Assembly (NCBI RefSeq): GCF_003334765.1
Contig: NZ_QOWT01000002.1
Direction: 5' to 3' (one strand)
DNA: 64,000 nt
Source: Escherichia coli
GTDB lineage: Bacteria; Pseudomonadota; Gammaproteobacteria; Enterobacterales; Enterobacteriaceae
Under the pieces are notes generated by a model that searched no databases, was not told the DNA's origin, and saw only the letters and a list, made by a program, of their open reading frames with translations. Below are positions 14,609 to 20,807 of this stretch, in pieces. The position numbers and the translations under genes were made by a program. Within the stretch, counting starts at the first letter, position 1; each line of letters opens with the position of its first letter.

Positions 14609-18673
<4,065 letters not shown>

Positions 18674-18686
18674 ACTCCTTTCTGAT

Positions 18687-18718
18687 GCCCGGTAAGCATG
18701 TGGTTACCGGGCATTTTT
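18687..18718 (+). terminator. rho-independent terminator of glpABC
   Basis: gcccggtaa-gcatgtgg-ttaccgggc followed by ATTTTT, 14 bp after the glpC stop. Confidence 0.85.
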
Positions 18719-18865
18719 GCGTACACGATTCCGTGCCCAATGTATGCGTTGCAACGCAGTGAAAATTCCTCTGAAAACGTCTCGCAAAGGCTGAAACTGG
18801 CAGATGTCAAAGGCCTGGGATAACCGTAATGTCGCGTCATCATAAATATCAGGTGACGGACAACC

Positions 18866-19765
18866 ATGACCGAATCAACAACCTCCTCCCCGCATGATGC
18901 GGTATTTAAAACCTTTATGTTCACACCCGAAACCGCACGGGATTTTCTCGAAATACATTTACCAGAACCACTGCGCAAGCTTTGCAACCTGCAAACCTTA
19001 CGCCTGGAACCCACTAGTTTTATTGAAAAAAGTTTACGCGCTTACTACTCGGATGTTTTGTGGTCCGTGGAAACCAGCGACGGTGACGGCTATATCTACT
19101 GCGTGATTGAACATCAAAGCTCTGCAGAAAAGAATATGGCTTTTCGGCTAATGCGCTATGCCACTGCCGCCATGCAGCGTCACCTGGACAAAGGCTATGA
19201 CAGAGTCCCGCTGGTGGTGCCGTTGCTGTTTTATCATGGCGAAACCTCGCCTTACCCGTACTCACTCAACTGGCTGGATGAGTTTGACGATCCGCAACTT
19301 GCCCGGCAGTTGTACACCGAAGCTTTTCCGTTGGTGGATATCACCATCGTACCTGACGATGAGATCATGCAACATCGGCGTATAGCTCTGCTGGAACTGA
19401 TTCAAAAGCATATTCGCGACCGCGATTTAATCGGCATGGTCGACAGGATCACCACGCTTTTGGTTAGAGGCTTCACTAATGACAGCCAGCTACAAACACT
19501 GTTTAATTATCTGCTGCAATGCGGCGATACCTCCCGTTTCACCCGTTTTATTGAGGAGATTGCCGAACGTTCACCACTACAAAAGGAGAGATTAATGACT
19601 ATTGCTGAACGGCTACGGCAGGAAGGGCATCAAATTGGCTGGCAGGAAGGTATGCATGAACAAGCCATTAAAATTGCTTTGCGCATGCTGGAGCAGGGCT
19701 TTGAACGTGAGATTGTGCTGGCGACAACCCAACTCACTGATGCTGATATTCCGAACTGTCATTAA
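18866..19765 (+). CDS. rpnE: Rpn-family (YhgA-like, PD-(D/E)xK) recombination-promoting nuclease (299 aa)
   Basis: Track ORF 18866..19765; N-terminal nuclease-like core (..[13 protein letters not shown]..) and a C-terminal tail that is duplicated as ypaA. Confidence 0.88.
19595..19765 (+). CDS. candidate internal in-frame small protein from the rpnE tail (56 aa, RpnS-like)
   Basis: In-frame ATG at 19595 preceded by AAAAGGAGAG (19581..19590); the same SD+ATG+ORF is duplicated as ypaA 183 bp downstream. Confidence 0.5.
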
Positions 19766-19777
19766 AAGGAGAGATTA

Positions 19778-19963
19778 ATGACTATTGCTGAACGGCTGCG
19801 GCAGGAAGGACATCAAATTGGCTGGCAGGAAGGTAAATTAGAAGGTTTGCATGAACAAGCCATTAAAATTGCTTTGCGCATGCTGGAACAGGGCTTTGAT
19901 CGTGACCAGGTGCTCGCGGCCACCCAGCTAAGCGAAGCCGATCTGGCAGCGAATAACCACTAA
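19778..19963 (+). CDS. ypaA: small protein, free-standing diverged copy of the RpnE C-terminal tail (61 aa)
   Basis: Track ORF 19778..19963, [61 protein letters not shown]; identical SD and first 19 codons to the internal rpnE segment. Confidence 0.8.
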   Translation: MTIAERLRQEGHQIGWQEGKLEGLHEQAIKIALRMLEQGFDRDQVLAATQLSEADLAANNH

Positions 19964-19970
19964 TTAACAC

Positions 19971-19997
19971 AGGCCCACAGCCGATCCCCATGGGCCT
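19971..19997. terminator. hairpin between convergent ypaA and rhmA (possible bidirectional terminator)
   Basis: aggccca-cagccgatcccca-tgggcct inverted repeat; weak T-run, so the terminator role is tentative. Confidence 0.4.
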
Positions 19998-20003
19998 TTG
20001 ATA

Positions 20004-20807
20004 TCAATAACTACCTTTTATGCGTGGCCCATTTTTGCCTGATTTAAACATCGCCAGTCGTTGATCCAGGGCATCGCTGTAGAGCATCGTGTCAACGCCA
20101 ACAGCGACAAAGTTCGCTCCCCACGCCAGGCATTGCTGCGCCATATCAGGAGCCACAGCCAGAAAACCAGCCGCTTTACCCGCAGCACGGATCCGCCGAA
20201 TACTGGTTTCAATAATTCGCTGCACTTCCGGGTGCCCGGCGTTATCCGGGTAGCCCAACGACGCAGAAAGATCCGCAGGTCCAATAAACACGCCATCAAT
20301 CCCTTCGACGTCGAGGATTTCGTCCAGGTTATCCAGTGCCGTTTTACTTTCCACCTGCACCAACAGACAAAGCGAATCGTTAACTTGCGCCATGTAATTC
20401 TCAATGCGTCCCCAGCGCGCAGCCCGTGCCACACTGGCCCCGACACCACGCTCACCGTAGGGAGGATAGCGCGTGGCAGACACCACCTGACGTGCCTGTT
20501 CGGCAGTATCGACCATCGGGATCAGTAGAGTTTGCGCGCCAATATCCAGGACTTGTTTAATCAGCGGTTTACTGCCTTCCACCGGACGGATCACGGGTTG
20601 GCTGGCATAGGGCGCTACCGCCTGTAGCTGATGATAAAGATCCTGAATGGTGTTTGGCGCGTGCTCCCCGTCAATCAGCAACCAGTCATAACCAGAAGTG
20701 GCGGCAATTTCTGCCATATAGGCAGTCGTTGAGCTTAACCACAGACCAATTTGCACTTCGCCCTTGCGTAAACGTTCTTTAAAGGGATTGCTTAATAATG
20801 CGTTCAT
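20004..20807 (-). CDS. rhmA: 2-keto-3-deoxy-L-rhamnonate aldolase (267 aa)
   Basis: [52 protein letters not shown]... (HpcH/HpaI aldolase family); ATG at 20807. The track ORF 20004..21110 is over-extended into rhmT. Confidence 0.92.

Follow-up and report, generated by a model that had tools for sequence, protein, structure and literature searches.

A probable RpnE gene-within-a-gene toxin-antitoxin module of Escherichia coli with a tandem partial duplicate, ypaA

We analysed a stretch of 64,000 nucleotides from an Escherichia coli genome (NCBI RefSeq assembly GCF_003334765.1, contig NZ_QOWT01000002.1; the whole stretch is referred to as the window), in which rpnE and ypaA lie in the order glpC-rpnE-ypaA-yfaU and are annotated under these names in RefSeq. 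The 1098-nt segment that holds the two genes has 100% identity with several E. coli chromosomes and 99.8% identity with K-12. The RpnE-S and YpaA proteins of the window are identical to their K-12 counterparts, and the RpnE-L/RpnE-S/RpnE-Ss system of K-12 has the same locus, internal start and downstream copy. The features of the locus are listed in Table 1.

Table 1. Features of the rpnE-ypaA locus, in positions of the window.
Feature	Position	Strand	Basis or remark
rpnE (yfaD), full-length RpnE-L, 299 aa	18866..19765	+	ORF; PD-(D/E)XK / Transposase_31 nuclease domain and variable C-terminal tail
Weak internal-promoter candidate (ATGACA, 17 nt, TTTAAT)	19479..19507	+	Inference only; 10/12 against the sigma-70 consensus; -10 hexamer without A at position 2
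Tandem repeat copy 1: Shine-Dalgarno (SD) sequence and RpnE-S coding region to the stop codon	19581..19765	+	Repeat search, alignments
Internal SD, AAGGAG	19583..19588	+	6 nt 5' of ATG 19595
RpnE-S, 56 aa, predicted intragenic antitoxin	19595..19765	+	Internal start M244, rpnE frame
Tetrapeptide-unit region of the in-gene tail	19616..19651	+	0 extra units after WQEG in the window strain
Tandem repeat copy 2: SD AAGGAG (19766-19771) and ypaA	19764..19963	+	Repeat search, alignments
ypaA (= rpnE-Ss), 61 aa	19778..19963	+	ORF; RpnS-type three-helix protein encoded on its own, in the rpnE frame
12-nt insertion (AATTAGAAGGTT)	19836..19847	+	Adds one tetrapeptide unit (KLEG) to YpaA helix 1 relative to the in-gene tail
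GC-rich hairpin between convergent ypaA and yfaU (rhmA), probable shared terminator	19971..19997	.	Terminator-like site on the minus strand; plus-strand fold -12.1 kcal/mol, z -2.3

The family assignment of the full-length protein is clear. Residues 8-209 of RpnE match Pfam PF04754 (E 7e-88), and the protein scores 173.5 bits against TIGR01784 (cutoff 52.1) and 699.5 bits against NF007418, above the NCBIfam equivalog cutoff of 583. The five residues needed for the activity of RpnA (D11, D63, E82, Q84 and R94) and D165, a residue of the PDDE motif (PMC5350276), are all kept in the RpnE of the window and are near-invariant in 78 relatives. The PADLOC v2 defence models, a library that predates or omits Rpn, gave no significant match for RpnE or YpaA.

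A repeat search showed that the 3' part of rpnE recurs immediately downstream of the gene. Two direct repeat pairs, both far above chance level, were found: 19581-19652 with 19764-19835 (72 nt, 97% identity, offset 183 nt) and 19646-19747 with 19841-19942 (102 nt, 84% identity, offset 195 nt), and the difference between the two offsets therefore places a 12-nt insertion in the downstream copy. Both copies start with AAAAGGAGAGATTAATG, which sets AAGGAG 6 nt ahead of an ATG, in frame at codon 244 of rpnE in the first case and at the start of ypaA in the second; this confirms the twofold SD and ATG that a preliminary description of this DNA had reported. That description also gave the first 19 codons of RpnE-S and YpaA as identical, which holds for the residues and fails for the nucleotides, where there are two synonymous differences. 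It further described a five-codon insertion (KLEGL) in ypaA; the 12-nt block in fact splits an ATG codon into AAA...TTG, such that M is replaced by KLEGL at the protein level and the net gain is four codons. A second indel, of 3 nt, lies close to the C-terminus, and the small ORFs encode 56 and 61 residues, with a protein identity of 46/61 (75%). Residues 24-40 of YpaA match the in-gene tail, and the last 20 residues differ from it at nine positions and by one indel.

The two genes share a reading frame, with only TAA (19763-19765) and AAG GAG AGA TTA between them. The junction, CAT TAA AAG GAG AGA TTA ATG, corresponds to the Q-K-E-R-L-M codons leading to M244 with CAA changed to TAA, and the geometry is that of a head-to-tail, in-frame duplication of a 183-nt unit running from SD to stop codon.

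The internal start is widely conserved. An SD-like motif and an ATG are present at the equivalent site in 68 of 73 intact relatives, taken from other species and from paralogs. For the lysine embedded in the SD (position -4), 35 relatives use the codon AAG and none uses AAA, a bias that fits selection on the nucleotide sequence. Tail lengths in most of these relatives fall on a series of 53, 57, ... 85 residues, in steps of four, consistent with four-residue indels.

Both the internal start of rpnE and the ypaA duplication are already known from two studies, of 2019 and 2023. With Ribo-RET and Onc112, Meydan et al. (2019; bioRxiv 10.1101/520783) mapped peaks of initiation to an in-frame start inside each of the five rpn genes, and they likened the RpnE internal product to YpaA, in keeping with the earlier suggestion that the layout fits an internal-start model; the identity given there is 98%, against the 75% measured here. 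Zhong et al. 2023 (PNAS; PMC10400941) found that all five RpnS proteins are made, renamed ypaA as rpnE-Ss, ‘a second copy of RpnE-S’, and saw SPA-tagged RpnE-S and YpaA in K-12 immunoblots. In their experiments RpnS stopped the growth inhibition, SOS induction and DNA cleavage caused by RpnL for RpnA, RpnB and RpnP2, and also neutralised RpnL toxicity for RpnC (PMC10400941), which bears out the preliminary statement that small proteins from internal starts counter the toxicity of Rpn nucleases. The same study showed that RpnA-L and RpnA-S form an L2S2 complex, that RpnA-S is a dimeric three-helix bundle, that Rpn tails differ by four-residue repeats within helix 1, and that plasmid-borne Rpn gives protection from T-even phages (PMC10400941). 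The available portion of the published text contains no report of RpnE-S or YpaA activity against RpnE-L, and the role of RpnE-S as antitoxin of RpnE-L is predicted from RpnA, RpnB, RpnC and RpnP2, for which antitoxin activity has been demonstrated. The general phenomenon is important, since a gene inside a gene serves as the antitoxin of an anti-phage nuclease, but it has been published, so the finding here mainly confirms a documented feature that was recognised from raw sequence. Added to the literature are the size of the insertion, the genome frequency of ypaA, the type of C-terminal end that YpaA carries and the K-12-specific substitutions in RpnE described below.

We then asked what YpaA resembles. 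The protein aligns to positions 244-308 of the RpnE model NF007418 (E 3e-31) and, in a phmmer search, matches PDB 7TH0 (RpnA-S; E 3.4e-4). An AF2 model of YpaA (41 tails; mean pLDDT 78) has helices at residues 3-37, 42-49 and 53-57, and a Foldseek search with this model returned 7TH0 as the top PDB match, with a probability of 1.00 and a TM score of 0.73 on the target. The RpnA-L/RpnA-S pair is alike in that its small protein also starts internally at codon 244 and folds into three helices, of which the first is long; it differs in that RpnA-S has no tetrapeptide units of the RpnE-S/YpaA kind, which leaves a 12-residue gap in the alignment, and in that RpnA has no free-standing copy, whereas RpnE has ypaA. 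YpaA is closest to the adjacent rpn tail (75% identity to RpnE-S compared with 42% to RpnA-S), with the same SD and the same spacing to the ATG. No significant Pfam domain was found on YpaA, and PF14261 (DUF4351) did not match at E ≤ 10.

A phage-borne YpaA mimic acting as an anti-defence protein was also considered and set aside: tblastn against 50,697 phage records gave seven records, none convincing, and the one inspected (H41) is a chromosomal contig of Salmonella that carries the rpnA locus. The remaining records include matches in Sodalis phage phiSG1, annotated as transposase/gp15.

Very probably, the locus is the RpnE module already described in E. coli, a toxin-antitoxin pair encoded as a gene within a gene, and ypaA is its tandem partial duplicate. 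AAGGAG and the ATG at codon 244 direct separate translation of the last 56 residues of RpnE as RpnE-S, a product seen in K-12, and the duplicated 183-nt unit gives ypaA its own SD and ATG; according to the K-12 literature ypaA is translated too. By homology with RpnA, RpnB, RpnC and RpnP2, RpnE-S would form a three-helix bundle whose long helix 1 pairs with the identical C-terminal domain of RpnE-L in an L2S2 complex. If RpnE behaves as other Rpn proteins do, this complex would keep the nuclease inactive until it is released by an infecting phage or some other signal, and the count of tetrapeptide units along helix 1 would decide which S protein pairs with which L protein.

An internal transcription start site has been assigned to every rpn gene from dRNA-seq (PMC10400941). 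In positions 18600-20100 a stricter consensus scan found no near-consensus internal promoter, and the candidate in Table 1 lies outside the duplicated segment. The duplication includes just 14 nt 5' of the ypaA ATG, and for these two reasons ypaA is probably co-transcribed with rpnE and rpnE-S. Initiation at ypaA would use its own SD and may be coupled to termination at the rpnE stop codon 12 nt upstream. The transcript probably ends at the hairpin that is common to convergent yfaU. No RNA family was found by an Rfam scan of 18600-20100 at E ≤ 1.

To place the duplication in the species, we searched 5426 complete E. coli genomes with the junction (19700-19830, coverage at least 80%). Of these, 3134 (∼58%) have the tandem junction, and the other genomes match only the rpnE-internal half; ypaA is therefore polymorphic. 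In the window the two copies differ at 3 of 124 nt over their first two thirds, all synonymous, and at about 24 of 62 nt (∼39%) over the last third, where pS is 0.55 and pN is 0.26. A recent replication slip, or an assembly artefact of this one sequence, would account for the head-to-tail tandem geometry, which is all that we found in its favour, and is refuted by the occurrence of the same junction in 3134 independent complete genomes together with the divergence of the 3' thirds; its probability is practically nil. The abrupt change point fits two histories: gene conversion may still be acting on the 5' part, or the pair may have arisen when two old alleles recombined.

The two copies carry different C-terminal ends. 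In 15 of 15 sampled tandem strains and in the window, the in-gene tail ends in EREIVLA[TA]TQL[TS]DADIPN[CG][HY], whereas YpaA ends in [FI]DRD[QL]VLAATQLSEADLAAN[NS]H in the tandem strains sampled. All three single-gene strains sampled (BL21, O157:H7 and MS1685) have the YpaA-type end on rpnE itself. The same arrangement, one gene with a YpaA-type end and without ypaA, is found in E. albertii, with a few substitutions, and in two further Escherichia species; a divergent ‘E. coli’ lineage has one gene, without ypaA, with a mosaic end. Since outgroups and single-gene strains share the YpaA-type end, it is YpaA that has kept the ancestral C-terminus and the in-gene tail that is the divergent one, the reverse of the preliminary view that ypaA carries a diverged C-terminus.

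In BL21, rpnE consists of a K-12-type 5' part and the 3' end of a K-12-type ypaA, and it shares the K-12-specific TTT and CAG codons. The single gene of BL21 is a secondary loss of the tandem state through a 195-nt deletion between the repeats. Losses of this kind have been described for the family: each downstream rpnS copy arose independently from its parent rpn gene, and a deletion or a fusion can remove it again (PMC10400941).

We next considered whether ypaA is a functional gene. The ORF, SD and ATG of ypaA are intact in 15 of 15 sampled tandem strains and in the window. Outside the repeat array, pN/pS across 10 tandem strains is 0.06 for the ypaA alleles and 0.12 for the in-gene tail, figures from a small sample of pairwise comparisons that are not independent. 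This pattern indicates purifying selection on ypaA and speaks against its RefSeq pseudogene label. The label belongs to a reading in which ypaA is a non-functional remnant, a pseudogene fragment left by partial duplication or tail replacement: RefSeq lists it as a pseudogene in MG1655, PGAP labels it an incomplete fragment without an N-terminus, it is missing from 42% of complete E. coli genomes, and it has the lack of a significant Pfam domain noted above. We consider this reading quite improbable, given the intact SD, ATG and ORF, a pN/pS lower than that of the in-gene tail, and the ribosome-profiling signal and tagged protein reported for K-12 (10.1101/520783, PMC10400941). The preliminary description had taken ypaA to be an old, maintained copy and not a recent slip, and its distribution, intact ORF, low pN/pS and the synonymous divergence of the 3' thirds agree with this. 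That ypaA behaves as a selected gene in spite of its pseudogene label is a further addition to the published account.

The number of extra tetrapeptide units in helix 1 was compared between the in-gene tail and YpaA in a sample of 18 E. coli strains (Table 2). The in-gene tail has 0-8 extra units and YpaA has 1-4, and the two numbers are unequal in eight of nine distinct allele pairs. An earlier, smaller sample had them unequal in nine of nine strains; the generalisation that they always differ was dropped when wider sampling brought in ECO20, where they are equal. The arrays are so variable that unequal numbers should arise by chance, and the strains share ancestry, so the mismatch in eight of nine pairs is not statistically compelling.

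Table 2. Extra tetrapeptide units in helix 1 of the in-gene tail and of YpaA.
Strains	In-gene tail	YpaA
Window, K-12, NDM_12	0	1
MINF_9A, IAI39	3	1
CB7453, SCU-105	5	2
A3	1	2
ZH063, EC15	8	4
MSB2_1A	1	4
SWHEFF_69	5	1
10035004-3, ST95-32	5	1
ECO20	4	4

The consequence of such a mismatch is known for one case: adding one repeat to RpnC-S alone, or to RpnC-LS alone, abolished inhibition (PMC10400941). The YpaA of the window is longer than the resident tail by one unit, so its role may be other than that of one more antitoxin against the RpnE next to it. If the RpnC rule generalises, the YpaA of the window would pair poorly with the resident RpnE-L; this is suggestive only, since the rule comes from a single engineered pair and RpnE may not follow it. 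Helix 1 of this YpaA has the same sequence as the in-gene tail in strain A3, and on the same proviso YpaA would therefore be cognate to the A3 allele.

These observations bear on the simplest role for ypaA, that of a redundant cognate antitoxin that acts in trans and simply adds to the RpnE-S available to counter the resident RpnE-L. It is a role for which the identity of the first 19 residues, the match of residues 24-40 to the in-gene tail, the expression of the protein (PMC10400941) and the equal repeat numbers in ECO20 all speak. Set against these are the extra tetrapeptide in helix 1 of the window YpaA, given the loss of inhibition after one-sided repeat addition in RpnC, the mismatch in eight of nine allele pairs, and the nine differing positions and the indel within the last 20 residues. 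We regard the redundant role as possible but somewhat unlikely, and the preliminary proposal that ypaA supplies an extra antitoxin against the resident RpnE is accordingly doubtful.

YpaA has a helix 1 one unit longer than the resident tail and a last 20 residues of ancestral type, so we read it most likely as a second-specificity RpnS that is under selection and that also serves as a recombination substrate for swaps of the RpnE tail, rather than as extra cognate dosage. A more specific form of this second-specificity reading, which we put forward tentatively and think rather unlikely, is that ypaA is a selected, translated cassette of an alternative tail, usually mismatched in length. Unequal recombination or gene conversion would move its arrays and ends onto the nuclease gene, and free YpaA would inhibit those RpnE variants whose helix is as long as its own. 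If true, the specificity of the RpnE-L/RpnE-S pair could switch in one step, as the BL21-type fusion suggests, and rpnE-ypaA would be a small arrangement that generates diversity in a toxin-antitoxin pair used for defence. The usual helix mismatch between YpaA and the RpnE tail offers a concrete test of the repeat-number rule and of the purpose of free-standing RpnS proteins.

Comparable arrangements exist elsewhere in the family. The rpnC-Ss gene and other free-standing RpnS genes, some with DUF4351 (PF14261), are, like ypaA, tail-like ORFs 3' of a parent rpn gene with a different repeat number. Among 80 other Rpn loci, we found a downstream copy of the tail at only two, an rpnC-like locus (L077) and a locus of Rahnella bruchi (L058), and in both the repeat number is again unequal to that of the parent tail. 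These two copies are out of frame and follow a spacer of 100-250 nt, whereas ypaA is in frame and begins 12 nt past the stop codon. A broader likeness is to type II toxin-antitoxin systems with orphan or extra antitoxins, in which a small helical protein neutralises the toxin by direct binding and an additional antitoxin-like gene, unlinked or adjacent, is present, as may be the case here. The present module differs from these in that the predicted antitoxin is part of the toxin itself, namely its C-terminal domain, which an internal start yields as a separate protein, and in that specificity is apparently set by helix length in four-residue steps.

The full-length RpnE-L of the window differs from that of K-12 at two positions. 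The window protein has the family-consensus residues L107 and P155; K-12 has Q107 and L155, private substitutions at two family-invariant positions. In the only published test of its toxicity, that of Kingston et al. 2017, K-12 RpnE had no effect, and it was equally without activity in their recombination and SOS assays (PMC5350276); the MG1655 RefSeq entry labels RpnE inactive. Because the K-12 protein carries two such substitutions, the negative results for RpnE may be specific to K-12, and tests of RpnE toxicity would be better served by an allele like that of the window.

Comparison of RpnE in the window with the K-12 protein (MG1655 and ER3413) revealed two differences: residues 107 and 155 are Leu and Pro in the window, as opposed to Gln and Leu in K-12. 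Since Leu107 is invariant and Pro155 is present in 76 of 78 sampled Rpn relatives, K-12 RpnE has two private substitutions at invariant positions. K-12 RpnE was inactive in the study of Kingston et al. 2017 (PMC5350276) and is labelled 'inactive' in the MG1655 RefSeq record; the Gln107 and Leu155 changes may explain both this inactivity and the label. The coordinates of these codons and of the other features are reported in the table.

Disrupted rpnE orthologs were also observed. In E. coli UTME-10, an IS2 insertion truncates rpnE after codon 211, with ypaA and the remainder of rpnE displaced. In the Escherichia whittamii ortholog, probably a pseudogene, codon 177 is an in-frame stop, beyond which the frame is open.

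The internal product of RpnE and YpaA are identical at 46 of 61 positions (75%, BLASTP; window 19595-19963), and neither small protein differs in sequence between K-12 and the window. An identity of 98% between the two is given in the preprint of Meydan et al. (bioRxiv 10.1101/520783). RefSeq treats ypaA in several ways: the MG1655 gene (b4543) is a pseudogene, an alternative label describes an 'incomplete, missing N-terminus' fragment that begins directly after the rpnE stop, and one newer record names the product 'Rpn/YhgA-type helix-turn-helix domain-containing protein'. The pseudogene or fragment status conflicts with both the published detection of the protein and a pN/pS of 0.06 for ypaA.

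Among 80 other Rpn loci, just two (L077 and L058 in the table) have a free-standing tail copy downstream of the parent gene. Each copy is out of frame with its parent gene, from which it is separated by a gap of 100-250 nt, and at both loci the repeat number of the copy differs from that of the parent.

Strain variants occur at the ypaA junction and in the in-gene tail. The base 3 nt upstream of the ypaA ATG is G (GATTGATG) in strains A3, ZH063 and MSB2_1A, not A (GATTAATG), and in the MSB2_1A in-gene tail MTITE replaces MTIAE. Downstream of ypaA, the intergenic hairpin was called terminator-like on the minus strand, and on the plus strand is followed by just three T residues.

Coordinates of the features compared
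Feature	Position	Remark
rpnE codons 107 and 155	window 19185 and 19329	compared with K-12 (loci L001, L100)
ypaA	window 19778-19963; L001 3901-4098; L101 417-602	RefSeq annotation compared
Hairpin	window 19971-19997	GC-rich; between convergent ypaA and yfaU
Tail copy	L077 2462-2698	E. coli SCPM-O-B-8794, rpnC-like locus
Tail copy	L058 2643-2891	Rahnella bruchi
Disrupted rpnE	L012 1501-3373	E. coli UTME-10
Disrupted rpnE	L017 1501-2421	Escherichia whittamii
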